NCBI GenBank assembly: GCA_046351555.1
Contig: JAXLYI010000029.1
Location: 45,727-109,726 of the forward strand
DNA length: 64,000 nucleotides
Reading direction: 5' to 3'
DNA from: Polyangiales bacterium
Lineage (GTDB): Bacteria; Myxococcota_A; Polyangia; Polyangiales; Ga0077539
Shown here: positions 7,718-36,637 of the stretch, in pieces
How the letters are laid out: every line of letters begins with the position of its first letter
Numbering within the stretch: the first letter of the stretch is position 1
Translations under genes and position numbers: made by a program
Notes under the pieces: generated by a model
What the model was told of the DNA's origin: nothing
Databases searched by the model: none
What the model saw: the letters and a program-made list of their open reading frames with translations, nothing else

Positions 7718-9403
7718 ATGGCACACAGCCGCGTGTTCGATCAACTGCGCAACCTCCTCCACCTCGCGCGCGACGCCGAGCGCCTCGGCGGCACGCTCGA
7801 CGACGCCCGCGCCGAGCGGGCCCGCGCGATCAGCCGACGTCAGCTCCTCGGCGGCGCCGCCGCGGCCGCGGGCCTCGCCGCGCTTGCGCCCCTCCGCGCG
7901 AAGGCGGGGCCCATTCGTGGACAGCCGCGCATCGCGATCGTGGGCGCCGGGCTCGCGGGGCTCGTGTGCGCCGACACGCTCTCGCGCCGCGGCGTCGCCT
8001 GTCGACTGTACGAGGCGCACCCGGGCCGCGTCGGCGGGCGCGTGCTGAGCGACCGCGACACCTTCCCCGGGCAGGCGTCGGAGTGCGGCGGCGAGATGAT
8101 CGACACGCTCCACACCACGATGCTGCGCTACGCGCGCGAGCTCGGCCTCGCCCGCGAGGACTACGAGCGCGCGCCGGGCGAGGAGCGCTACTACTTCTTC
8201 GGCCGGCACCACGCAGAGCGCGACGTCGTGGCGCAGTGGCGGGCCCTCGTGCCGCGGCTTCAGGACGACCTCCGCACGCTCTCGGGGGAGCCGACGTTCT
8301 TCTCCCACACGCGGCAGGACGAGATCCTCGACCAGACCGACCTCGCGTCGTACCTCGGCGACCGCGCGGCCGACCTCCCGCTCGCGCGCGAGGTGCTGAT
8401 CCAGGCGTACATCGCGGAGTACGGGCTCGAGCCGCACGAGCAGAGCTGCCTCAACTTCCTGCAGTTCATCCACCTCGACCGGCGCGGGCACTTCGCGGAG
8501 TTCGGGCAGTTCAGCGACGAGCGGTACCACCTCGTCGGGGGCAACGACGGCGTCGCCCGCGCCCTCGCCGCGCGCCTCACGGACTTCGGCAGCCCCGTGC
8601 TCCAGGGCGCCGCGCTCACCCGCCTCGCGCGCCGCGCGTCGGGCGAGTTCGAGCTCTACCTCAACGGGGCCTCGTCCCCCGAGGTGGCCGACGCCGTGGT
8701 GCTCACCCTCCCCTTCGGCGCGCTGCGCAACGTCGCCCTCGACGCCTCGCTCGGGCTCTCGGCCGACAAGCTCCGCGCCATCCGCGAGCTCGGCTACGGC
8801 GCCAACGTCAAGACCGCCGTCCGCTTCGACCGCCGCGTGTGGGCCGACCAGGGCGGCAACGGCGGCGCCTACACCGACCTCGACAACGTGCAGAACACCT
8901 GGGAGACCAACCGCGCGGGCTCCGTGGGCGGCGCGGGCATCCTCACCGACTACGCCGGCGGCGCGCGCGGCCTCGACCTCCAGGAAAACCCCTCGGGCAA
9001 CTTCTCCTGCGGCGGCTGCCACCAGGGCGCGCCCACCAACCACGTGCTCCACCCCGCGGGCCGCGCGTGGGTCAACGCGCAGGTGGAGGCCTTCGTCCAT
9101 GACCTCGACCGCGTGTTCCCCGGGGCGGCCGCGGCGGTGTCGCGACGGAGCGACGGCACCATCGTCGCGCGGCGCTCGCACTGGACGCCGCAGGGCTTCA
9201 GCCGCGGCTCGTACACGGCCTACCGGCCCGGGCAGTTCACCACCATCGCGGGGCTCGAAGGGCAGGCCGCGGGGGCGCTGAAGTTCGCCGGCGAGCACAC
9301 CGACTCCTTCTACGACTGGCAGGGCTACATGGAGGGCGCCTGCAACTCGGGCGTCCGCGCGGCCGGCGAGGTGCTCGACGACCTCCGCAACGGCCGGCTG
9401 TAG
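7718..9403 (+). CDS. Flavin-containing amine oxidase (MAO/L-amino-acid oxidase family), Tat-secreted
   Basis: In-frame part of giant ORF 6107..9403; start ATG 7718 preceded by GGAAGGGA RBS. Tat motif SRRQLLGGAAAAAGLAALAPLRAKA; FAD dinucleotide fold IAIVGAGLAGLVCAD...GGR; C-terminal FAGEHT amine-oxidase motif. Confidence 0.85.
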   Translation: MAHSRVFDQLRNLLHLARDAERLGGTLDDARAERARAISRRQLLGGAAAAAGLAALAPLRAKAGPIRGQPRIAIVGAGLAGLVCADTLSRRGVACRLYEAHPGRVGGRVLSDRDTFPGQASECGGEMIDTLHTTMLRYARELGLAREDYERAPGEERYYFFGRHHAERDVVAQWRALVPRLQDDLRTLSGEPTFFSHTRQDEILDQTDLASYLGDRAADLPLAREVLIQAYIAEYGLEPHEQSCLNFLQFIHLDRRGHFAEFGQFSDERYHLVGGNDGVARALAARLTDFGSPVLQGAALTRLARRASGEFELYLNGASSPEVADAVVLTLPFGALRNVALDASLGLSADKLRAIRELGYGANVKTAVRFDRRVWADQGGNGGAYTDLDNVQNTWETNRAGSVGGAGILTDYAGGARGLDLQENPSGNFSCGGCHQGAPTNHVLHPAGRAWVNAQVEAFVHDLDRVFPGAAAAVSRRSDGTIVARRSHWTPQGFSRGSYTAYRPGQFTTIAGLEGQAAGALKFAGEHTDSFYDWQGYMEGACNSGVRAAGEVLDDLRNGRL

Positions 9404-9439
9404 TCACCGCGCCCTTGCGGTAGGCTCGCGGGCCGCGCG

Positions 9440-10798
9440 ATGCCCGTCACCCGCCGCCTCGACCTCGACGACAACACCTCCCTCTGGGCCGCCACCGCGC
9501 GCCCCGTCGACCCGCTGCCAGCATTGCGCGGCGACGTGCGCGCCGACGTGGTGGTCATCGGCGCGGGCTTCACGGGCATCTCCACCGCGTACCACCTCTC
9601 CGCGCGCTACCCCGACCGCAAGGTGGTGGTGCTGGAGGCGAAGCGCGTCGGCAACGGGGCCTCTGGGCGCAACGGCGCGATGGCGCTCCACTGGGTCAAC
9701 GGCGTCGAGGTGCGCGACGCCGAGCGGGCCCGCCAGCTCTACGCCGTCACCACCGAGACGCTCGACTGGATCAAGAACGTCGGCCGCGAGCACGGCTTCC
9801 CGGTCCGCTTCCGCAGCAACGGCTGCCTGGAGATCGTCACCAGCGCGCAGCGCGCGGAGGAGGCCCACGAGCACGCCGAGCGGCTCGCGTCGTGGGGGCT
9901 GCCGATCCGCTTCCTCCAGGGCGCCGCGCTGGAGGAGAAGCTCCGCGCGCGGGGCGCCGTCGGGGCCACCTTCGACCCGACGACGGGCCAGCTCCATGGG
10001 CTCGACCTGCTCCACGGATTGCGCGGCGTCCTCCTCGGGCGCGGCGTGGACATCTACGAAGGTACGCCCGTCGTCCGCATCGACGAGGGCCGCGAGCACG
10101 TCGTCACCACGCCCCACGGCACGGTGCGCGCGCCCGCGCTGGTGCTCGCCACCAACGGCTACACGCCGGCGCTGGGGTATTTCCGCGGCGGGGTGATCCC
10201 GCTCCACTCGCACTGCGTCGCCACCGAGCCGCTGCCGCTCGAGCGCTGGCGCGAGCTCGGCTGGGGCGACGTCGCGGCCTTCAGCGACGACCTCGACCGC
10301 ATCGCCTACGCCAGCCTCACCGAGGACGGCCGGCTCCTCTTCGGCGGCGGCGGCAACGGCGCGTACTCGTACTACTACGGCGGCCGCACGGCGACGCCCG
10401 CGCCCCCCGAGCGCCAGTGGGCCTTCGTGCGCAGCGTGCTCGACCGGTACTTCCCCGGCGCGAAGGACGTCCGCCTCGCCCACCGCTGGACGGGCACGCT
10501 CGGCATCACGCTGAGCCGCGTGTGCAGCATGGGCGTGATGGGCGAGTACAAGAACGTCTACTACGCGCTCGGCTACAGCGGGCACGGCGTGGTGCTCGCC
10601 AACCTCGCGGGCCGCGTGCTCTGCGACCTCTACAGCGACCACCACGAGCCCTGGCGCGATCTCCCCTTCTACCAGGCGCCGCTCTGGGGCATCCCCCCGG
10701 AGCCCCTGCGCTGGATCGGCTACCACGCCTTCACCGCGGTGACCGGCCGCTCGCCGCGGCGCAACGAGGCCCGCGACTCGCTCGCGCGGAGGAGGTGA
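9440..10798 (+). CDS. FAD-dependent oxidoreductase (DAO family; D-amino-acid/glycine/sarcosine oxidase-like)
   Basis: 452 aa; N-terminal FAD fold DVVVIGAGFTGISTAYHL; overall DAO architecture; 36 nt downstream of amine oxidase (operon). Confidence 0.8.
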   Translation: MPVTRRLDLDDNTSLWAATARPVDPLPALRGDVRADVVVIGAGFTGISTAYHLSARYPDRKVVVLEAKRVGNGASGRNGAMALHWVNGVEVRDAERARQLYAVTTETLDWIKNVGREHGFPVRFRSNGCLEIVTSAQRAEEAHEHAERLASWGLPIRFLQGAALEEKLRARGAVGATFDPTTGQLHGLDLLHGLRGVLLGRGVDIYEGTPVVRIDEGREHVVTTPHGTVRAPALVLATNGYTPALGYFRGGVIPLHSHCVATEPLPLERWRELGWGDVAAFSDDLDRIAYASLTEDGRLLFGGGGNGAYSYYYGGRTATPAPPERQWAFVRSVLDRYFPGAKDVRLAHRWTGTLGITLSRVCSMGVMGEYKNVYYALGYSGHGVVLANLAGRVLCDLYSDHHEPWRDLPFYQAPLWGIPPEPLRWIGYHAFTAVTGRSPRRNEARDSLARRR

Positions 10799-10807
10799 GG
10801 CACGGCG

Positions 10808-11257
10808 ATGTCGAACCCGTTGTACCTCTGGGTCGCGTTCGCCGCGCTGGCGCTCGCCGCGCTGGTGGGGGCGCTGGTGTGGTGGTCGTCGGCCCCGCGC
10901 GAGCTGGCCGGCGCCGACGCGCGCCCCGGCGAGCCCGTGACGCTGGTGTTGCAGAGCGCGCCGGCGGGCGAGCTGGCGCTGTGGGTGCGCTACGAGCTCG
11001 CGACCGACGATGAGTTCGCGGCCGTGCGCGTGCGGTGGGAGGCGACGGCGGCGGGCGCGCGGGTGGGCGGCGGGGAGGCGACGCGCGACGGGCCGCGGGT
11101 GTGGCACGGCGGGCGCGAGGGGTGGGAGGCGTTCAGCGATCGCGTGGCGGTGATCCGCGGGGCGGCGCCGGGCGCGCGGGTGGAGGTGCGGGTGACGGTG
11201 GGGGAGTGCACGGTGCCCGCGCGCGTGCTGAAGGCGCGGGCGTACCTCGCGCGGTGA
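10808..11257 (+). CDS. Hypothetical membrane-anchored protein
   Basis: 149 aa; N-terminal TM helix LYLWVAFAALALAALVGALVWW; 9 nt after oxidase stop; GC3-rich. Confidence 0.5.
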   Translation: MSNPLYLWVAFAALALAALVGALVWWSSAPRELAGADARPGEPVTLVLQSAPAGELALWVRYELATDDEFAAVRVRWEATAAGARVGGGEATRDGPRVWHGGREGWEAFSDRVAVIRGAAPGARVEVRVTVGECTVPARVLKARAYLAR

Positions 11258-28692: not shown

Positions 28693-30126
28693 ATGAACCT
28701 CGACCCCGCCGCCTGCCACGCCGCCGTCGACGCGCGCGACCGGCGCTACGACGGGCTCTTCTTCACCGGCGTCACCTCCACCGGCGTCTACTGCCGCTGC
28801 GTCTGCCCCGCCCGCACGCCGAAGCCCGCCAACCGCGCCTTCTTCCCCTCCGCGGCCGCCGCCGAGGGCGCAGGCTTCCGCCCCTGCCTGATGTGCCGGC
28901 CCGAGTGCGCGCCGGGCGCCGCGCCCATCGACGCCACCGAGCGCCTCGCCCACGACGCGCTCCGCCGCATCGAGGCCGGCGCGCTCGAAGAGCAGGGCCT
29001 CGAAGCGCTCGCCGCCGACCTCGGCGTCTCCGACCGCCACCTCCGCCGCGCGATGATCGACACCTTCGGCGCCGCGCCCGTCGCCATCGCCCAGACGCAC
29101 CGGCTCCTCACCGCGAAGCGCCTCCTCCGCGAGACGTCCCTCCCCGTCACGCAGGTGGCCTTCGCCGCGGGCTTCCAGAGCCTCCGGCGCTTCAACGCGC
29201 TCTTCCGCGAGCGCTACGGGATGCCGCCCTCGCGCGTCCGAGAGCGCGCCGCCGCGAGCGCCGGGCTCACCGTCACCCTCGCGCCGCGCGGCGTGTTCGA
29301 CGGCGCCGCGCCGAGCGCGCACTTCCGCCTCCGCGGCGTCACGCGCATGGAGCTGCCCGTCGGCGACCGCGGCTGGACGCGCACCTTCGCGATCGACGGC
29401 CACGCCGGCTGGATCGCGCTCGACCTCTCCGGCGAGGCCCCGCGCCTCACGCTCTCCGACGGCCTCGCGCCCGCCTTCCGCGCGGTGATCGCCGCGGTGC
29501 GGGGCGCCCTCGACCTCGACGCGAACCTCGACGCCATCCACGCCTCGCTCGCGCGCGACGCGGCCTTCGCGAAGGAGATCGCCGCCGACCCCACCGTCCG
29601 CCTCCCTGTCGCCCTCGACCCCTTCGAACTCGCCGTCCGCGCCGTCGTCGGGCAGCAGGTGACCGTGAAGGCCGCGACCGGCGTGGTGAGCCGCCTCGTC
29701 GAGCGCTTCGGCGCGCCGATCGAGACGGGCGTCCCCGGCCTCGACCGCCTCTTCCCCACGCCCGAGCGCCTCGCCGACGCCACCGCCTCGGAGTTCGAAG
29801 GGCTCGGCCAGCCTGGGGCGCGCACCGCCACCGTGCAGCGGATCGCCCGCGCCGTCGCCGACAAGAAGCTCCGCCTCGCGCGCGGCGCGGTCGCGGTGGG
29901 GCGCGCGGGCCTCTCGGAGATCGCAGGCGTCGGCCCGTGGACGCTGGAGTACGTCGCGCTGCGCGGCCTCGGCGACCCCGACGCCTTCCCGCTCGGCGAC
30001 AGCGCGCTGCGCGCCGCGCACCCGGGCGACCTGAAGCGCGACTGCGAGTTCTGGCGGCCGTGGCGCGCGTACGCCGCCGCCCGCCTCTGGCGCCGCCCGA
30101 TCACCCCGCGAAAGAGCACCCCATGA
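28693..30126 (+). CDS. alkA: Ada-like regulatory domain / AraC-HTH / DNA-3-methyladenine glycosylase II (AlkA) fusion
   Basis: 477 aa; N-terminal Ada Zn-binding Cys cluster (CRCVCPAR...CLMCRPEC), AraC-type HTH, C-terminal HhH-GPD glycosylase domain. Confidence 0.85.
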   Translation: MNLDPAACHAAVDARDRRYDGLFFTGVTSTGVYCRCVCPARTPKPANRAFFPSAAAAEGAGFRPCLMCRPECAPGAAPIDATERLAHDALRRIEAGALEEQGLEALAADLGVSDRHLRRAMIDTFGAAPVAIAQTHRLLTAKRLLRETSLPVTQVAFAAGFQSLRRFNALFRERYGMPPSRVRERAAASAGLTVTLAPRGVFDGAAPSAHFRLRGVTRMELPVGDRGWTRTFAIDGHAGWIALDLSGEAPRLTLSDGLAPAFRAVIAAVRGALDLDANLDAIHASLARDAAFAKEIAADPTVRLPVALDPFELAVRAVVGQQVTVKAATGVVSRLVERFGAPIETGVPGLDRLFPTPERLADATASEFEGLGQPGARTATVQRIARAVADKKLRLARGAVAVGRAGLSEIAGVGPWTLEYVALRGLGDPDAFPLGDSALRAAHPGDLKRDCEFWRPWRAYAAARLWRRPITPRKSTP

Positions 30127-30650
30127 ACCTCGTCGAGGAGCACCCCGTGATGAACGTCGTCGTCCACCCCACGCCCGTCGGCCCGCTCCACCTCGCGAGC
30201 GACGGCGCCTCGCTCGTCGCGTGCGAGTTCGAAGGCTACGAGCGCGGCATCGCCCATCGCATCCTCCGTGAGCGGACGGCGTCGAGCGCTGACGCGGTGA
30301 TCGACCTCGCCCGGCGCGAGCTCGACGGATTCTTCGCCGGGCGCCTGCGCGCCTTCACGGTGCCCGTGGCGCCGCGCGGGACGGACTTCCAGCGCAAGGT
30401 GTGGGCGGCGCTGCGGGAGATCCCCTACGGCGAGACGTGGAGCTACGGCGCGCTGGCGAAGCACATCCACAGCCCCGCCGCGGTGCGCGCGGTGGGCGCG
30501 GCCAACGGGCAGAACCCGGTGTGCATCATCGTCCCCTGCCACCGGGTCATCGGCGCCGACGGGTCGCTGACGGGCTTCGGCGGGGGACTCCCGCGCAAGC
30601 GCTACCTGCTCGCGCTCGAGCGCGGCGAGCGCCCGCTGATGATGGCCTGA
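30123..30650 (+). CDS. ogt: O6-methylguanine-DNA methyltransferase
   Basis: 175 aa; active-site PCHRV motif; ATGA overlap with upstream alkA stop. Confidence 0.9.
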   Translation: MNLVEEHPVMNVVVHPTPVGPLHLASDGASLVACEFEGYERGIAHRILRERTASSADAVIDLARRELDGFFAGRLRAFTVPVAPRGTDFQRKVWAALREIPYGETWSYGALAKHIHSPAAVRAVGAANGQNPVCIIVPCHRVIGADGSLTGFGGGLPRKRYLLALERGERPLMMA

Positions 30651-30758
30651 GGGGGGCCGCAGATTCCGCGCCGCGTGCGCGACCGGCCCCTCGCGCTTTC
30701 CCTTTGCCTTCGGGGCCGCGGCGCCCTATCACCCTGCGCGCCGTGCCCGCCGCGCGGC

Positions 30759-30765
30759 GGAGGAG
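30759..30765 (+). promoter_or_regulatory. Shine-Dalgarno (GGAGGAG) for MVP-homolog gene
   Basis: GGAGGAG 8 nt upstream of ATG 30774. Confidence 0.5.
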
Positions 30766-30773
30766 TGACTGCG

Positions 30774-33227
30774 ATGGGAGACAACGACCGCGGCCGCGAG
30801 CGCGACCTGGTGCTCGCGCCGAACGAGTTCGCCTTCATCTCCGACGAGACGAAGGGGAACATCAACGTCTACGTCGGGCCGCACAAGACGAGCCTCGCCA
30901 ACACCGACCGGCCGGTGGTGTTCAACAACGACTCGAAGCGCTTCGACCGCTGCTCGCTGGAGCAGGCCACCCAGACGCTCGCCGTCGCCCCCGAGGGCTG
31001 GTACCTCGTCCTCAAGAACCCCGCGCGCGACGGCTCCCACCCCCGCACGGGCGCGCTCAACAACCTCCCCGACCTCAACGTCGGGCGGAAGGTCAACGTC
31101 CCTGGCCCCATCTCCTTCGCGCTCTGGCCCGGCCAGATGGTGCGCGTCATCCAGGGGCACCACCTCCGCTCCAACCAGTACCTCGTGGTGCGCGTCTACG
31201 ACGAGGAGGCCGCGCGCGCCAACTGGAAGGACGCCGTCTTCAAGCCGCAGCGGACGGGTGACGGCGCGCCCGAGCCCGAGGAGCCGCCCATCCGCCCCGA
31301 CGACCTCACCATGGGCAAGCTCATGGTCATCAAGGGGACGGAGGTGGCCTTCCACATGCCGCCGACGGGCATCGAGGTGGTGGCCGACGCGGGCGGGCGC
31401 TACGTGCGCGAGGCCGTCACGCTCGAGCGCCTCGAGTACTGCATCCTGCTCGACGAGGACGGCAACAAGCGCTTCATCCGCGGGCCCGCGGTGGTGTTCC
31501 CGCGGCCGACGGAGGGCTTCGTCGAGCGCGGCGGGGCGAGGAAGTTCCGCGCGATCGAGCTCAGCGAGACCTCGGGCATCTACGTGAAGGTGATCGCGCC
31601 CTACGAGGACGAGTCGGGCGCGCACAAGGTCGGCGAGGAGCTCTTCCTCACCGGCAAGGAGCAGATGATCTACTTCCCGCGGCCCGAGCACGCGGTGGTG
31701 AAGTACGGCGACCACGAGATCCACTACGCCATCGCGATCCCTGCGGGCGAAGGGCGCTACGTGCTCGACCGCCACACCGGGAGCATCCGCCTGGAGCGCG
31801 GGCCGTCGATCTTCCTGCCCGACCCGCGGCACCAGGTGATCATCCGCCGCGTGCTGCCGCCGCGCACGGTGTCGCTGTGGTTCCCGGGCAACGCCGACGC
31901 GCTGGCGGTGAACCAGCAGCTCGCGTCGATGAAGGAGTCGCAGGGCGAGGGCAAGCACCTCGTCGACCGGCTCCAGCAGAGCAACATCGCGCAGCGCGCC
32001 GTCGCCGCCGACGAGGCCGCGGCCGAGAAGGTGGGCCACGCCTTCGCCGGCGACGACTTCAACCGCTCGCAGACCTTCACCCGCCCCCGCACCGTCGTCC
32101 TCGACACCAAGTACGAGGGGGCCGTCTCCATCGACGTGTGGACGGGCTACGCCGTGATGGTGGTGAGCCGCTCGGGCGAGCGCAAGGTGATCGAGGGGCC
32201 GCACACGCACCTGATGGAGTACGACGAGACGCTCCAGTCGCTGGAGCTGTCGTCGGGCACGCCCAAGAGCGACGACCGGCTCGTGCGCACGGTGTACCTC
32301 CGCACGCTCAACAACAAGGTGAGCGACGCGGTGGAGGCCGAGACGCGCGACCTCTGCAAGGTGCGCCTGCTGCTCTCCTACCGGGTCAACTTCGAGGGCG
32401 ACCACGCGCGCTGGTTCAACGTCGAGAACTACGTGAAGTTCCTCTGCGACCACCTGCGCTCGCTGCTGCGGCACGCGGTGAAGCAGCACGGGGTGGAGGA
32501 CTTCTACGCCCGCGCCGCCGCGGTGGTGCGCGACGCGATCCTCGGCGGCGCCGCCGACGGCAAGCGCGCGGGCCGCTCCTTCGACGAGAACGGCATGCGC
32601 GTCTACGACGTCGAGGTGCTCGACGTCTCCCTCGGCGACGACAGCATCGCGAAGATGCTGGTCGAGGCCCAGCACGCGGCGGTGAGCGGCGCCCTCCACG
32701 TCGCCACCGAGCAGCGCAAGCTGGAGATGGTGCGCCACAGCGAGGAGACCAAGCAGCGCGTCGGCGAGATGCAGGCCGCGTCGCGCCTCGCCGAGATCGA
32801 CGCGCGCCTCCGCGAGGTGGAGCGCCAGCGCGAGCTCAGCGCCGCCGAGGCCGCCGCGGAGTCGGCCCTCGACCGCCAGCGCCACGAGTCCCGCCGCGAC
32901 GCCCAGGCGCTGATCGACGCCGTCCACGCCGCCGAGCTCGCCCGCAAGCGCGCCGAAGGGGACCAGGAGAACGAACGCGAGCGCCAGCGCCTCGAGCGCG
33001 ACCTCGCCCGCCTCGCCGCGGAGGTGCGCGCCACGGTGGAGCGGGCCGGCGCGGTGTCGCCCGACCTCGTCGCCGCGCTCCAGGCCTTCAGCGACCGCGC
33101 CCTCGCCGAGCGCATGGCCGAGAGCATGGCGCCCCTCGCGATCCTCGGGGGCGAGAGCGTCTCCGAGGTGCTCGCGCGGCTGATCCAGGGCACGCCCGCG
33201 GCCAAGGCGCTCGCGAAGAAGGCGTAG
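30774..33227 (+). CDS. Major vault protein (MVP) homolog - MVP repeat-like N-terminal region, shoulder domain, cap-helix coiled coil
   Basis: 817 aa; direct similarity to vertebrate MVP: SLELSSGTPKSD...RLLLSYRVNFEGDHARWFNVENYVKF vs human VLSLSAGRPKRP...[30 protein letters not shown]; repeated ~55-aa modules with the F/V-P-x-P...VV pattern (NKRFIRGPAVVFPRPTEGFVE, KEQMIYFPRPEHAVVKYGDHE, GPSIFLPDPRHQVII); C-terminal 150 aa Ala/Glu/Arg-rich heptad coiled coil like the MVP cap helix. Confidence 0.85.
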   Translation: MGDNDRGRERDLVLAPNEFAFISDETKGNINVYVGPHKTSLANTDRPVVFNNDSKRFDRCSLEQATQTLAVAPEGWYLVLKNPARDGSHPRTGALNNLPDLNVGRKVNVPGPISFALWPGQMVRVIQGHHLRSNQYLVVRVYDEEAARANWKDAVFKPQRTGDGAPEPEEPPIRPDDLTMGKLMVIKGTEVAFHMPPTGIEVVADAGGRYVREAVTLERLEYCILLDEDGNKRFIRGPAVVFPRPTEGFVERGGARKFRAIELSETSGIYVKVIAPYEDESGAHKVGEELFLTGKEQMIYFPRPEHAVVKYGDHEIHYAIAIPAGEGRYVLDRHTGSIRLERGPSIFLPDPRHQVIIRRVLPPRTVSLWFPGNADALAVNQQLASMKESQGEGKHLVDRLQQSNIAQRAVAADEAAAEKVGHAFAGDDFNRSQTFTRPRTVVLDTKYEGAVSIDVWTGYAVMVVSRSGERKVIEGPHTHLMEYDETLQSLELSSGTPKSDDRLVRTVYLRTLNNKVSDAVEAETRDLCKVRLLLSYRVNFEGDHARWFNVENYVKFLCDHLRSLLRHAVKQHGVEDFYARAAAVVRDAILGGAADGKRAGRSFDENGMRVYDVEVLDVSLGDDSIAKMLVEAQHAAVSGALHVATEQRKLEMVRHSEETKQRVGEMQAASRLAEIDARLREVERQRELSAAEAAAESALDRQRHESRRDAQALIDAVHAAELARKRAEGDQENERERQRLERDLARLAAEVRATVERAGAVSPDLVAALQAFSDRALAERMAESMAPLAILGGESVSEVLARLIQGTPAAKALAKKA

Positions 33228-33298
33228 CCGCACCCGAACACCAGAACCGCGCCGGGGAGTTGACCCCGGCCGCGTGTCTGGTGCTCACTCCGCGCGAG

Positions 33299-34354
33299 AT
33301 GCCTGCCCAATCTCGCGAGATCCCCGTCGAGAAGCTACACCTGGACATCCGCAACCCCCGGCTTCCCGAGGTGCTCCAGGGACGCAGCGAAGCGGAGTTG
33401 CTGCGCTTCCTCTACGAAAAAGAGGAGCTCACCGAGCTGGCTGTGTCCATGTGCGACAACGGCTTCTTCGCGCACGAGCCGCTCCTCGTGGTGAAGGCGG
33501 CGAAGGGTGGCGACGATTTCACGGTCCTCGAAGGCAACCGTCGACTCGCGACCCTCAAGATCCTCCTCGGCGACCCCATCGCGGAGGACATCCAATTCGA
33601 CGGGCTCGCGCTCGATGGGGAGCGACGCGCGGAGCTGCTTCAAGTCCCCTGCGTCGAGGTAAGCGGGCGATCGGAGATCCTGTCGTTCCTTGGCTTTCGC
33701 CACATCGAGGGGCCTCGACCTTGGAGCCCCGAAGCGAAGGCGCGGTACATCGTCGACGCAGTCGATCAGGCCGTCAAGGAGGGATCACAGCGCCCTTTTT
33801 ACGAGGTCGGTCGACGCACCGGCGGCAACACGCCGGGCGTTCGAAACCTCTACGTCGCGCTCAAGGTACTGCGGGTCGCGCGCGAGGAGCACGGGTTGGA
33901 GGTTGATCCCGTCCTCGACCAGCGCTTCGGCTTCTGGCAGCGCTGCATGAACTCCCCGGAGATTCGACAGTTCATCGGTTTCGAGAGCGCGGACGACATC
34001 GACGAGATCAAGCGGAGCCTCAAGAGGCTGCGGCCAGAGGAGTTCAAGAAGGTTCTGGACGACGTTCGCCCGGGGGGGCGCCTCAAGGACTCTCGTCAGA
34101 TCACGGAGTACGGCAAGGTTCTCGTCAACCCCGCAGCCTACGAGCGCTTCCGCGAGACCGATAGCCTGGAGGAGGCGCGTCGCGTACTCAAGGCGGACTC
34201 GATCGTTGCCCGTGTGACACAGCTTCAACATGACTGTGAGAAGGTCGGCCAGGAGATCAACGGACTGGAGTCCATCGACGATCCCCTGCGTCAGGCCGTC
34301 AGCCGACTGCAGCGTGTGGTGAAGGGCATGTGGGCCGCCGTCAAGGAGGATTGA
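33299..34354 (+). CDS. ParB/Sulfiredoxin-like nuclease/NTPase-domain protein (DUF262/GmrS-like or DndB/DpdB-like)
   Basis: 351 aa in-frame tail of ORF 31877..34354; N-terminal ParB-type motif FTVLEGNRRLATLKIL (xGxRRxxA); gene has reduced GC and atypical codons (aaa, cgt, cga, tca, gat) versus flanks. Confidence 0.65.
   Translation: MPAQSREIPVEKLHLDIRNPRLPEVLQGRSEAELLRFLYEKEELTELAVSMCDNGFFAHEPLLVVKAAKGGDDFTVLEGNRRLATLKILLGDPIAEDIQFDGLALDGERRAELLQVPCVEVSGRSEILSFLGFRHIEGPRPWSPEAKARYIVDAVDQAVKEGSQRPFYEVGRRTGGNTPGVRNLYVALKVLRVAREEHGLEVDPVLDQRFGFWQRCMNSPEIRQFIGFESADDIDEIKRSLKRLRPEEFKKVLDDVRPGGRLKDSRQITEYGKVLVNPAAYERFRETDSLEEARRVLKADSIVARVTQLQHDCEKVGQEINGLESIDDPLRQAVSRLQRVVKGMWAAVKED
34343..34350 (+). 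promoter_or_regulatory. Strong Shine-Dalgarno (AAGGAGGA) for island gene 2
   Basis: AAGGAGGA 6 nt upstream of GTG 34357, inside the 3' end of the ParB-like gene (translational coupling). Confidence 0.55.
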
Positions 34355-34356
34355 GC

Positions 34357-35328
34357 GTGTCACCGATCCCTCCTCGCATCGATGCCGATGCTGTGGCTGA
34401 GCGACGTCCCATGCTTGCCGACCTCGTGGAGCAGGAGGTGTTGCGTGGCGGAAAGATGTCTCGCGCAAGGCTCGCAACATGGATCCGGAAAGCAGGCGTT
34501 ATCCGTCAACTCGCCGAGACCTATGAAGCCGACCGCCCTGAGATAGATCCCGCGGATGGTGAGGACGATCGAGCGGATGGCGCCGAGCCTGGCCCTCACG
34601 ACGTGGCAGATGAGGCCGCAGGGCGTGTGTTCGATCAACTCACGGAGCGGGCGCGGTGCTTGGCAGAACGATACCCATTTGCACTCACCGCCAGCGGTGA
34701 GTTGCGGCGAGCGGCTGGAGCTGCTCTGGGCTGGTATGACTTCTTGCTCGCACTGTCGGTTGCGCATCGCTACGCAGTCCCGGTTGAAGGGGTCCAGCTC
34801 GATCGCCTCTTCGAGCGCCTCGTAGCGAGCTGCCTGCCGAAACTCGGCTTCCAGGTCAAGCACTTCGGCACCGCGGCGACGCGATCGGGAGGCCCCATCG
34901 AACGCATCGATGCAGCCGCGAGGGAGTTGCGGCTGTTGCCACGCTGGCAAGGCAACCGCTCTCTGATTCGACGCCGCGCCAACGATGCTGGTGTCGATGC
35001 ATTAGGCCGGCTAGGAGCGGGTGATGGCAGGCCCGGGGACTGGGTGCTACTCGCGCAGACCACCGTCGCCCGGAGTGACGACTGGAACGCGAAAGCGTCG
35101 GAGGCGTTGCACTCTCCACTCCACAAAATCTTTGACGACCACCCGAGGGTGGCTGCCCTCGCGGTTCCCTATCACGTCGCAACGGAACGTTTGCTCGACT
35201 TGACACGCAACTACGAGATCGTCGTGTTCGATCGACTGCGCCTGACGCTGCTGCTCGACGCGAGGCCAACGAGCGATGGCGCGACGCTGTGCGAGGCAGT
35301 CCGCTCCGTCGAATTCGAGTGGAGCTGA
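34357..35328 (+). CDS. Hypothetical protein, island gene 2 (possible PD-(D/E)XK/Mrr-like nuclease partner)
   Basis: ~323 aa from GTG 34357 (ORF 34330..35328); lowest GC in window with ttg/cgt/gga/tat/att codons; weak motif DAGVDALGRL...GDWVLLAQ reminiscent of Mrr_cat D-G-x-(I/V)-D-G...D-(V/I)-x-x-x-Q-x-K core but catalytic Lys not conserved. Confidence 0.5.
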   Translation: MSPIPPRIDADAVAERRPMLADLVEQEVLRGGKMSRARLATWIRKAGVIRQLAETYEADRPEIDPADGEDDRADGAEPGPHDVADEAAGRVFDQLTERARCLAERYPFALTASGELRRAAGAALGWYDFLLALSVAHRYAVPVEGVQLDRLFERLVASCLPKLGFQVKHFGTAATRSGGPIERIDAAARELRLLPRWQGNRSLIRRRANDAGVDALGRLGAGDGRPGDWVLLAQTTVARSDDWNAKASEALHSPLHKIFDDHPRVAALAVPYHVATERLLDLTRNYEIVVFDRLRLTLLLDARPTSDGATLCEAVRSVEFEWS

Positions 35329-35331
35329 TGC

Positions 35332-36591
35332 GTGGCTGACGGCCAGTCCAAGCCACTGTCGGGTGAGCAGCGCAGCACCGTTCAAGACGCACCGCTGCGG
35401 AGCATGGTGTCGCTCTTCTCGGGCGTCGGGGGGCTCGACGTCGGCCTGGAGCACGCAGGCTATCAGGTGCGCTGGTGTGTCGAGCACAATGAGACGGCAC
35501 GGCGAGCGCTCAACGCTCTGCACCCCGAATGGCCGCTCGATCCCGAAGGGGACGTGAGCCGGGTGGACGCGCGGGGATGGATGAAGTCAGTGGGACTCCG
35601 TGCCGGGGACCTCGACCTGCTCGCCGCTGGCCCACCCTGCCAGCCCTTCTCACACGCGAGCGCGTGGCGGCAGGCACCGAGCCGCATCGATGACGATCGC
35701 GTCGAGCCGTTTCGCGCGCTGTTCCGCACGGTAGCGGCGCAGCTCAAGCCGCGGGTGATCCTCCTCGAGAACGTACCTTCCCTCGGCAATGAGGCCGGGC
35801 AGCGCTGGCTCCGCGCGTGGTTTCAACGGCTCAACAAGGCCGCGGGCACCGCCTATTCCCCCTCCTTCGTCACCCTCAACGCCGTCGAGCACGGTGTGCC
35901 TCAATGCCGGCGTCGTCTGTTCATCGTTGCAGAACGTAGCGGGCGATCGTTTGCCGCGCCCGCCGCCACACACCACCCGCCCGAGGCCATCCCCCCCGGA
36001 GGCCGCCGCTACGTGACCGCGTGGGACGCTATCGGCACCCTCGAAGATGATCCTGATCCGAGGCTGCGATGCACCGGCCGTTGGGCCGATCTGCTCCCCT
36101 CCATCCCCGAGGGCTTGAACTACTACCACCACACCCCTCAGGGTGAGGGGCTTCCCCTCTTCGGTTACCGTACACGGTACTGGAGCTTCCTCCTCAAGCT
36201 CGCGAAAGATCGCCCTGCCTGGACCCTCCCCGCAAGCCCCGGCCCCGCAACTGGCCCCTTCCATTGGAAGAGCCGCAAGCTCTCTGCGCGCGAACTCGCC
36301 GCGCTCCAGACGATTCCACTTCCGCACGCTCTTGACCTCCCGCTCCATGTCGCGCAGCGCCTGCTTGGCAATGCGGTTCCGGGCGCGCTCGGAGAGCTGA
36401 TGGGATTCCAAGTTCGCACTCAACTCTTCGGCGAAACTCTATCCTGGCAACCTCGCCTCGTCCCGGCACCACGCAACGACTGCCCGGCCCCCATGCCTCC
36501 TGCGCCCGTCCCCTCACGCTTCGCCATCGCCCGTTCCGCGCCCGAAGCTCACCCCGGTGCCGGACGAGGCCCGCGCCCCTGGCAGCGCTGA
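35332..36591 (+). CDS. dcm: DNA (cytosine-5)-methyltransferase
   Basis: 419 aa; motif I LFSGVGG, motif IV PPCQPFS, motif VI ENVPSL, motif VIII QCRRRLFIV; start 4 nt after gene 2 stop (alt start ATG 35404 at MVSLFSGVGG). Confidence 0.9.
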   Translation: MADGQSKPLSGEQRSTVQDAPLRSMVSLFSGVGGLDVGLEHAGYQVRWCVEHNETARRALNALHPEWPLDPEGDVSRVDARGWMKSVGLRAGDLDLLAAGPPCQPFSHASAWRQAPSRIDDDRVEPFRALFRTVAAQLKPRVILLENVPSLGNEAGQRWLRAWFQRLNKAAGTAYSPSFVTLNAVEHGVPQCRRRLFIVAERSGRSFAAPAATHHPPEAIPPGGRRYVTAWDAIGTLEDDPDPRLRCTGRWADLLPSIPEGLNYYHHTPQGEGLPLFGYRTRYWSFLLKLAKDRPAWTLPASPGPATGPFHWKSRKLSARELAALQTIPLPHALDLPLHVAQRLLGNAVPGALGELMGFQVRTQLFGETLSWQPRLVPAPRNDCPAPMPPAPVPSRFAIARSAPEAHPGAGRGPRPWQR

Positions 36592-36637
36592 CGAGCGCCC
36601 CATTGCCCCCCCGCGCGCGGCGCCTTACAGCACCGCG

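Follow-up and report, generated by a model that had tools for sequence, protein, structure and literature searches.

LlaJI and BsuMI are restriction-modification (R-M) systems that depend on a nucleoside triphosphate (NTP): C5 methylases accompany a McrBC-like NTPase, an AAA+ GTPase, and a PD-(D/E)XK nuclease, and unmethylated DNA is the target. The best-known role of ParB-CTPase-fold proteins is that of clamps in chromosome segregation. Many orphan ParB-fold copies of unknown role were found on mobile elements in a 2025 survey (PMC12704722), and ParB-superfamily defence proteins of the DUF262 type (GmrSD, BrxU, SspE, Menshen NsnA, PD-T4-2 and Dazbog) join an NTP-binding domain to a nuclease, sense modified DNA, carry DGxQR and QRxxxW motifs and have HNH (DUF1524) nucleases or others as their effectors (PMC12065111). 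PD-lambda-5, a two-gene system listed as 'ParB/HEPN, methyltransferase', gives broad, experimentally validated anti-phage protection; its cloning required an mrr-deleted host, and it was described as a compacted prophage system of restriction-modification and abortive infection, 'RM+Abi' (PMC9519451). Here we analyze a three-gene island in a 64,000-nucleotide (nt) stretch of a Polyangiales bacterium genome (GenBank assembly GCA_046351555.1, contig JAXLYI010000029.1, positions 45,727 to 109,726; hereafter the window), whose genes encode a ParB-fold protein (g1), a predicted nuclease (g2) and a Dcm-type cytosine methylase (g3). From context, folds and analogy with these systems, the island would be a self-contained mobile R-M-type anti-phage defence cassette, with g1 and g2 for restriction and Dcm for self-protection, a reading to which we give a probability of about 0.68. 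The elements of the island are as follows, in window coordinates.

33244..36591, no strand assigned: the island, of low GC, inserted in a spacer of ~62 nt between a gene resembling that of the major vault protein (MVP) and sppA
33244..33298, + strand: leader, 55 nt 5′ of g1, kept in a second copy of the cassette (loci L003 and L004) despite differing flanks
33299..34354, + strand: g1, 351 amino acids (aa), ParB-CTPase-fold protein
34343..34350, + strand: Shine-Dalgarno sequence AAGGAGGA for g2, an exact match inside the 3′ end of g1
34357..35328, + strand: g2, GTG start, 323 aa, predicted nuclease effector
35332..36591, + strand: g3, GTG start, 419 aa, Dcm-type C5-cytosine DNA methyltransferase

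The island is a horizontally acquired cassette, foreign by composition. Its 3.35 kb have a GC content of 0.656, compared with 0.750 for the rest of the window, which is lower than in all 540 equal-sized segments outside it (mean 0.749, sd 0.016, minimum 0.700; z −5.9), and the GC profile runs at 0.62–0.66 over 33200–36400 and at ~0.75 on either side. GC at third codon positions is 0.81, 0.69 and 0.76 in g1, g2 and g3, against 0.99 in the MVP-like gene and 0.98 in sppA. The codons AAA, CGT, CGA, TTG, TAT, ATT and GAT occur 3–27 times per 1000 in the island and 0–0.7 times in both flanking genes. A preliminary description, made from the letters of the window, had proposed just such an island with non-host codons and host-like flanks, and had placed it at 33240–36600; its borders proved essentially exact, for blastn aligns the copy in L003 and L004, which come from two metagenomes and represent one shared genomic context, with 75.6% identity over 3384 nt to exactly 33244–36592 of the window. 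The flanks of that copy, a NUDIX gene upstream and a gene for a 936-aa protein downstream, are unrelated to those of the window. Because the homology ends at the island edges and the flanks are unrelated, the mobile unit is the three genes together with the conserved 55-nt leader. Neither a tRNA anywhere in the window nor an integrase within the island was found, as the same description had remarked of the borders, and flanking direct or inverted repeats of the kind left by an att site or a target duplication did not rise above chance matches in GC-rich DNA. The description had also named what would speak against its reading, namely uniform composition, conserved vertical synteny or housekeeping profiles for g1 and g2; instead, composition is non-uniform, genomic contexts are unrelated across phyla, and neither g1 nor g2 matched a housekeeping family.

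The same trio recurs widely. When one genome per species was scanned with a profile, 41 loci were recovered, which belong to Acidobacteriota, Alpha- and Gammaproteobacteria, Actinomycetota, Myxococcota, Chloroflexota and Latescibacterota. Context look-ups add copies from Rhodococcus, Curtobacterium and metagenomes. In all, the cassette is present in six or more phyla, amid housekeeping genes that are unrelated from one context to the next. In 41 of 43 non-window loci g2 lies immediately 3′ of g1; one of the two exceptions is a contig end and the other has a positional analogue too divergent to score. A full-length Dcm gene is present in the fetched flank of 37 of the 43, downstream on the same strand in 21 loci, downstream and convergent in 5, upstream on the same strand in 7 and upstream and divergent in 4. 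The GC content of g1–g2 falls below that of the host flanks in 34 of 34 testable loci. A g2 start that overlaps or abuts the g1 stop is usually available, although the overlap statistics are biased, since for loci other than the window the candidate start nearest the g1 stop was taken. The preliminary view of a horizontally acquired R-M-like or defence module thus holds in the form of a recurrent mobile cassette, its function being inferred; the trio belongs to a large family (2505 clusters of g2) and is not unique to this genome.

The neighbours that recur beside the cassette are consistent with an active cytosine methylase. An HhH-GPD or EndoIII-like glycosylase gene occurs in at least five loci and a Vsr gene in two, and these are the recurrent neighbours most relevant to function. 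By eye, an EndoIII/HhH-GPD glycosylase with a 4Fe-4S cysteine motif was recognized in L007, L009, L010, L011, L018 and L020, in all six between g2 and dcm on the opposite strand, while Vsr is encoded at 8021–8428 of L028 and as part of a 487-aa Dcm-Vsr fusion at 8021–9481 of L044. The window copy is without either gene. Vsr and EndoIII-type glycosylases repair the T:G mismatches that arise from deamination of 5-methylcytosine (5mC). As such, the cassette behaves in genomes as R-M systems generally do, as a mobile unit with variable methylase orientation and Vsr-type companions. The other neighbours are a few unrelated families that recur two or three times, unrelated housekeeping genes and occasional integrases or transposases. 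In one locus (L015), IS66-family genes stand between g2 and dcm, at 8569–11073.

The neighbours also bear on whether the three genes could serve a DNA-modification pathway beyond methylation, which we consider very improbable. In such a pathway g1 would regulate, or act as an ATPase, in the manner of DndB or DpdB, g2 would nick or process DNA, and together with Dcm they would install or edit a modification. The EGNRR motif of g1 resembles the D-G-Q-H-R type of motif, and DndB and DpdB are ParB-superfamily proteins within DNA-modification clusters (PMC11662687, PMC10164549). The mobile unit, however, is the three genes alone, and no gene for sulfur transfer, a transglycosylase, a dioxygenase or a glycosyltransferase recurs beside it, only those for repair of deaminated 5mC. 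Similarly, the DndB model (PF14072) and the DpdB model failed to match g1, and dnd or dpd genes were absent from the island and from the recurrent neighbours.

The cassette is also carried by phages. A single-sequence scan of viral contigs with g1 gave no match, whereas tblastn against GenBank phages found g1 homologues in 16 records, mostly of Peduoviridae. In the P2-like E. coli phage vB_EcoM-12474III (L049), gp04–06 comprise a 372-aa ParB-N protein, a 330-aa hypothetical protein and a convergent 312-aa methylase, flanked by the genes for the portal (Q) and for replication (A, gpA). The site between Q and A of P2 is a defence hotspot (Vassallo et al., PMC9519451). The Pseudomonas Peduoviridae phage D14A (L048) has the g1–g2 pair with an adjacent annotated DNA-cytosine methyltransferase, and Yersinia phage HQ103 (L047) has the pair beside gpA with no cytosine methyltransferase annotated adjacent to it. 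The middle proteins of these phages are g2 homologues (E 1e-26 to 1e-31 against the g2 profile), and the methylases tested, those of the E. coli and Pseudomonas phages, are of the C5 type.

The third gene is the most readily classified. The C5-methyltransferase assignment of the preliminary description is borne out by PF00145 (5.2e-35, profile positions 3–314 of 324), by TIGR00675 (113 bits against a cut-off of 100.65) and by PADLOC DruM/MTase_II matches of about 1e-50; the best sequence relatives in the PDB include M.HaeIII and M.HhaI. Its translation contains FSGVGG, PPCQPFS, ENV, QCRRR and GNAV, and from these matches g3 reads as an ordinary C5-cytosine methyltransferase that supplies the DNA methyltransferase with catalytic motifs expected of any R-M system. 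The gap from the g2 stop (35326–35328) to the g3 GTG at 35332 is 3 nt.

The first gene would encode a ParB-fold switch or clamp. Its product is laid out as an N-terminal nucleotide-binding domain of the ParB/sulfiredoxin (Srx) kind (residues ~1–125), a helical middle resembling a helix-turn-helix (HTH) domain (~140–289) and a variable C-terminal helical hairpin (290–349), and the start codon is backed by the N-termini of homologues. The AlphaFold2 model has a mean confidence (pLDDT) of 90.6. In Foldseek, ParB, KorB and Noc are its best PDB matches (E 2e-6 over ~258 columns, spanning the N-domain and HTH domain) and sulfiredoxin ranks after them on the N-domain alone, all four with a probability of 1.00, in line with the ParB/Srx-like label of the preliminary description. 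The sequence match to the best PDB ParB is weak (Spo0J, E 0.063), and a profile search aligned EGNRR (E78–R82) of g1 to GERR of Spo0J. Both marks of the ParB-CTPase fold, the N-domain fold and the Box II GxRR phosphate-binding motif, are therefore predicted for g1. Over 30 homologues 45 columns are invariant, among them NPRLP (19–23), EGNRR (78–82), GFRHI (132–136), AKAR (146–149), RFG.W (209–213) and DSR..T.Y (264–271), while the last 60 residues, the helical hairpin, are the least conserved region (mean identity 0.29). A word-indexed search gave 528 homologues, mostly of 350–375 aa, and those with names are called 'ParB N-terminal domain-containing protein' or carry similar ParB-nuclease labels. 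Full-length g1 matches PHROG phrog_3694 (9e-54). ParB folds bind CTP, ATP or GTP, and neither their sequences nor AlphaFold3 models allow the NTP to be predicted (PMC12704722).

The likeness to the ParB/KorB/Noc clamps has limits. g1 keeps GxRR as EGNRR and lacks the third Arg of GERRxRA; its C-terminus is a variable hairpin in which no ParB-type dimerization domain was detected; its partner in the cassette is a nuclease-fold protein; and its neighbouring genes differ, with no parA beside the island. A partition ParB was considered as a candidate identity and rejected: no Pfam domain, ParBc included, was found in g1, TIGR00180 (parB) scored 14.4 bits (E 0.024) against a cut-off of 58.45, and the neighbours are the MVP-like gene and sppA; no search for parS was made. 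On a related account, the genes would be a housekeeping or inert assemblage, either an orphan Dcm beside a partition or regulatory ParB and an unrelated gene, or a decaying cassette. The faint TIGR00180 match, a plasmid copy labelled as a ParB/RepB/Spo0J partition protein and three visibly decaying loci (L006, L021 and L036) would fit it. That parB score is nevertheless far below the cut-off, no parA-type family is among the recurrent neighbours in other loci, cassette composition is foreign, the window open reading frames (ORFs) are all intact and keep every family-invariant residue of the alignments, and the trio is maintained across phyla and in phage defence hotspots; we hold this account to be highly unlikely.

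Large plasmids and chromids of Persicobacter, Neorhizobium, Vibrio campbellii and Mesorhizobium (H17–H20) carry g1 homologues of 26–30% identity; the partition label on one such plasmid homologue is probably a misannotation if g2 and Dcm genes adjoin it. The most conserved motif of g1, L-G-F-R-H-I-x-G at residues 132–139 (33692–33715), followed by W142, is also the sole segment of the model with pLDDT below 50; it could form a flexible loop for catalysis, nucleotide binding or contact with a partner. The PADLOC model PDC-M38A, an unnamed defence candidate of 715 aa, matches g1 residues 40–294 (E 2.5e-12), having the ParB-like and middle domains in common with it, and the g1 copy of the E. coli phage (2e-21), and does not match g2; it may represent a third architecture that uses this ParB-like module.

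Among described systems PD-lambda-5 is the nearest relative. The PADLOC PD-Lambda-5_A models match the N-domain of g1 (best E 1.4e-19; homology over residues ~1–156), the gene lies beside a DNA methyltransferase gene in both systems, both are borne by prophages or mobile elements, and the authors of PD-lambda-5 likewise gave it an R-M-like reading. The differences are in the effector and the methylase. Protein A of PD-lambda-5 is a ParB/HEPN fusion of ~430–610 aa, whereas g1 has 351 aa with no HEPN detected in its hairpin, and the effector here is a separate PD-(D/E)XK-fold protein without a PADLOC match; protein B is a D12-class N6-adenine methylase, whereas g3 is a C5-cytosine methylase. Marinobacter phage AS1 illustrates a member of the system: its gp27 (486 aa) matches PD-Lambda-5_A over positions 4–381 of 473, about 400 residues, and its gp26 matches PD-Lambda-5_B (4e-103) and PF02086. 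The 25 PD-Lambda-5_A models shown to match g1 do so mostly over their first ~160 positions, one of them up to 237 of 454, so that g1 does not qualify as protein A; the top PADLOC matches of g3 do not include PD-Lambda-5_B, so that g3 is not protein B; and in place of a two-gene operon there are three genes, the additional nuclease-fold gene being kept in 41 of 43 loci. The cassette is therefore a sister architecture to PD-lambda-5 and not a member of it.

The kinship with GmrS/DUF262 or DndB/DpdB proteins that the preliminary description had suggested for g1 is not borne out, as none of these models matched it. As for type IV enzymes of the GmrSD kind, searches of g1 and g2 gave no PF03235 or PF07510 match at E ≤ 0.1, and neither GmrSD nor BrxU was among the PADLOC matches shown. 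In contrast to the DUF262 group, the fold matches of g1 are canonical ParBs, and g1 travels with a methylase.

The middle gene is the most divergent of the three across loci. Its product is modelled as an N-terminal helical domain followed by a C-terminal PD-(D/E)XK restriction-endonuclease-like core. No match was found in Pfam, NCBIfam or PADLOC v2, nor an informative name for any homologue in the protein collections used; the preliminary description, which saw no confident domain, was right as to Pfam domains, and profile and structure methods nevertheless point to the PD-(D/E)XK fold. Thirty-one positional homologues share invariant E153, D214, Q234, K246, D292 and R293, with D210, T236 and W243 nearly invariant. 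We assign the restriction-nuclease fold to g2 with fair confidence from these models, and a catalytically competent enzyme is likely on the same basis. The family is large, with 2505 clusters at 50% identity in an exhaustive HMMER search (E ≤ 1e-3), and nearly all of 150 listed homologues are 280–340 aa long. Its apparent rarity in a word-indexed search, where a single sequence or a 31-sequence profile gave 5 relatives, was a sensitivity artefact. Besides the GTG at 34357, g2 could start at TTG 34351 or at ATG 34411, the latter being the NCBI call (305 aa, locus tag U0324_34695). The sequence AAGGAGGA, of which there are 3 copies in the 64 kb against 0.55 expected, lies 6 nt upstream of that GTG and before the g1 stop at 34352–34354. 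The translational coupling of the three genes proposed earlier accordingly stands as regards this signal in the g1 3′ end and needs correction at the g2–dcm gap, which had been given as 4 nt.

Taken together, these features outline how the cassette might work. g3 would methylate host cytosines at a target motif and so mark self DNA. g1 and g2, co-translated in fixed proportion through translational coupling, would form the restriction component, in which g1 binds DNA, takes an NTP in its N-domain and acts as a switch or clamp that engages DNA, and g2 cuts DNA without the methylation of the cassette, for example that of an incoming phage or plasmid. The closest functional parallel would be LlaJI and BsuMI, where a cytosine-5 methylase likewise stands beside a two-protein restriction component of an NTP-dependent DNA-engaging subunit and a nuclease subunit. 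There the NTPase is a McrB-like AAA+ protein, whereas here a ParB/Srx-fold switch would take the place of the AAA+ GTPase; the two are without sequence relationship. The gene content, folds, conserved residues, mobility, tight g1–g2 linkage and looser Dcm linkage are observed; complex formation between g1 and g2, NTP dependence, cleavage of unmethylated DNA and an anti-phage function we infer from them. The R-M logic follows from Dcm being a neighbour of g1–g2 in 37 of the 43 loci, whatever its side and orientation, with Vsr or a glycosylase present in some of them. More tentatively, the cassette may stand for a distinct and widespread class of NTP-dependent R-M systems in which a ParB-fold clamp loads on DNA and delivers or licenses a PD-(D/E)XK nuclease, a possibility that we hold to be less probable than not. 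If true, restriction would have, besides the SF2 motors of Type I and III systems and AAA+ McrB, a third way to communicate over long distances on DNA, and strains could exchange the nuclease cassette as a module in an arms race.

Co-variation across loci separates the pair from the methylase. The similarity matrices of g1 and g2 correlate with a Spearman coefficient of 0.84, compared with 0.38–0.42 for either protein and Dcm, and Dcm falls into seven clusters and g1 into two, with Dcm exchanged between subfamilies. As the g1–g2 correlation is tight and that with Dcm weak, the restriction pair is the constant part of the cassette, whose methylase is replaced on occasion. All three g1 sub-domains correlate with g2 divergence (rho 0.69–0.82), so that an interaction surface was not singled out in this way.

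A comparison with a near-identical strain may point to one. Locus L051 covers window positions 33175–36632 at the same insertion site with the island present; its flanks are 98% identical to those of the window, g1 is 96% identical (nt and aa) and Dcm 92% (nt) or 94% (aa), whereas g2 is 61% (nt) or 60% (aa) identical. The drop in identity starts at ~34160, in the C-terminal hairpin of g1, and ends at the g2 stop (window 34160–35328; L051 985–2162), so that the swapped segment consists of g2 and the last ~60 codons of g1, at 61–83% identity. From this pattern, g2 and the g1 tail were replaced as a cassette while the methylase remained unchanged. The swap suggests that the g1 hairpin touches g2, and that g2 is the part of the system that evolves quickly, as would be seen for an effector hit by phage inhibitors.

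Several observations weigh against an R-M cassette. The same swap suggests that g2 alone cannot set a specificity matched to the methylase; such a role would fall to the HTH-like domain of g1 or to the methylase itself. The nuclease assignment has its own weak points. The g2 model was built from an alignment of only 6 sequences, and Foldseek of this model gave no significant PDB match (best E 3e-3). In a profile search D214 and Q234 of g2 fall on the D..QxK motif of MspJI at a non-significant E of 1.5; the aligned MspJI residues are the catalytic D334 and Q355. In the g2 family, the Lys that is canonical for D..(Q/E)xK motifs (K357 of MspJI) is absent, its place being taken by Thr236 here and by Cys or Gly in phage copies; therefore, g2 catalysis would depend on the invariant Lys 10 residues later, K246. 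The MspJI family also cuts methylated DNA, the opposite of what is expected for the cassette. Finally, L017 has an intact g1–g2 pair with no Dcm gene within 6 kb, and in L006 (7982–10596) g1 and g2 look intact while dcm is cut to a 119-aa remnant by an insertion sequence, followed by a DDE transposase gene. Both loci count against strict R-M because a strictly lethal restriction pair should not persist without its methylase, unless the genome is protected by a methylase encoded at a distance or the locus was misassembled. In favour of R-M, on the other hand, two of the loci lacking Dcm have a damaged g2, L021 (frameshifted) and L036 (truncated); many loci are metagenome-assembled genomes, in which frameshifts may be assembly errors.

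The intact pairs of L017 and L006, and the exchange of g2 independently of Dcm as for an arms-race effector, would suit a sensor-effector or abortive-infection system, in which g1–g2 answer a signal of infection (foreign modified DNA, for example, or replication intermediates or a protein of the phage) and Dcm masks host DNA from other nucleases, serves epigenetic marking or is only an addiction partner. Precedents exist in PD-lambda-5, called 'RM+Abi' and equipped with a HEPN effector (PMC9519451), and in the DUF262 ParB-superfamily defence proteins that sense modified DNA (PMC12065111). We regard this explanation as unlikely, though less so than the two set aside above: the pair has a Dcm beside it in 37 of 43 loci, those of different phyla and of phages included, the Vsr and glycosylase companions imply a methylase active on the host genome, g1 is nearer to canonical ParB CTPases than to the modification-sensing DUF262 proteins, and the predicted effector fold is of a DNase type, not HEPN.

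As an R-M-type cassette, the trio would be an uncharacterized variant with a ParB-fold subunit and with a second subunit, g2, that has no model in Pfam, NCBIfam or PADLOC v2. Through it, one large orphan clade of ParB-fold proteins (~360 aa) is connected with a partner of the restriction-nuclease fold and with a cytosine methylase. The carriers of the trio are soil and marine bacteria from at least six phyla, together with P2-like phages of E. coli, Yersinia and Pseudomonas. PADLOC v2 models recognize just two parts of it, the methylase and the ParB-like N-domain of g1, and a PD-lambda-5 call requires PD-Lambda-5_B, which is absent here, so that such loci are probably scored as orphan methylases or missed. 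The version in the E. coli phage makes the mechanism directly testable in a model host, and the outcome would also bear on how PD-lambda-5 works. For the Polyangiales genome itself, a barrier to incoming DNA and a 5mC motif in its methylome are probable from the gene content. The literature nearest to the cassette covers PD-lambda-5 and the P2/P4 hotspots (PMC9519451), Menshen and the DUF262 systems (PMC12065111) and the ParB-fold survey (PMC12704722); the trio was not described in the literature and libraries searched, which did not include REBASE and subscription journals, so that an earlier mention is possible.

The junctions of the island show some further features. The leader carries TTGAC, and the conserved part ends 2 nt before the g1 ATG; its retention makes a cassette promoter or operator possible, and a sigma-70 consensus scan gave no match in the island, leader included. 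On the left, where the MVP-like gene stops at 33227, a predicted hairpin spans the island junction directly 3′ of that stop.

33239..33284, + strand: hairpin, −36.4 kcal/mol, z −3.8, with 0 of 200 shuffles as good

The L003 copy does not keep this hairpin (z 0.04). Although without a U-tract, it may terminate transcription of the MVP-like gene upstream, and it is probably outside the mechanism of the cassette. On the right, sppA (Pfam Peptidase_S49, 8e-69) most likely starts at ATG 36638 rather than at GTG 36557, because the spacer is ~62 nt and the GTG falls within the island.

Upstream of the island, the MVP-like gene (30675–33227, + strand) encodes a bacterial homologue of the eukaryotic major vault protein (MVP_shoulder 1.7e-27, Vault_3 2e-5) with a long, helical C-terminus rich in Glu, Arg and Ala, and its composition is host-like. 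The stretch 28693–30650 (+ strand) encodes a 477-aa protein that, by its translation, resembles a regulator-glycosylase fusion of the Ada/AlkA type, and after it a short protein whose translation contains the PCHRV motif of O6-methylguanine-DNA methyltransferase; the two would form a DNA-alkylation repair pair 5′ of the MVP-like gene.

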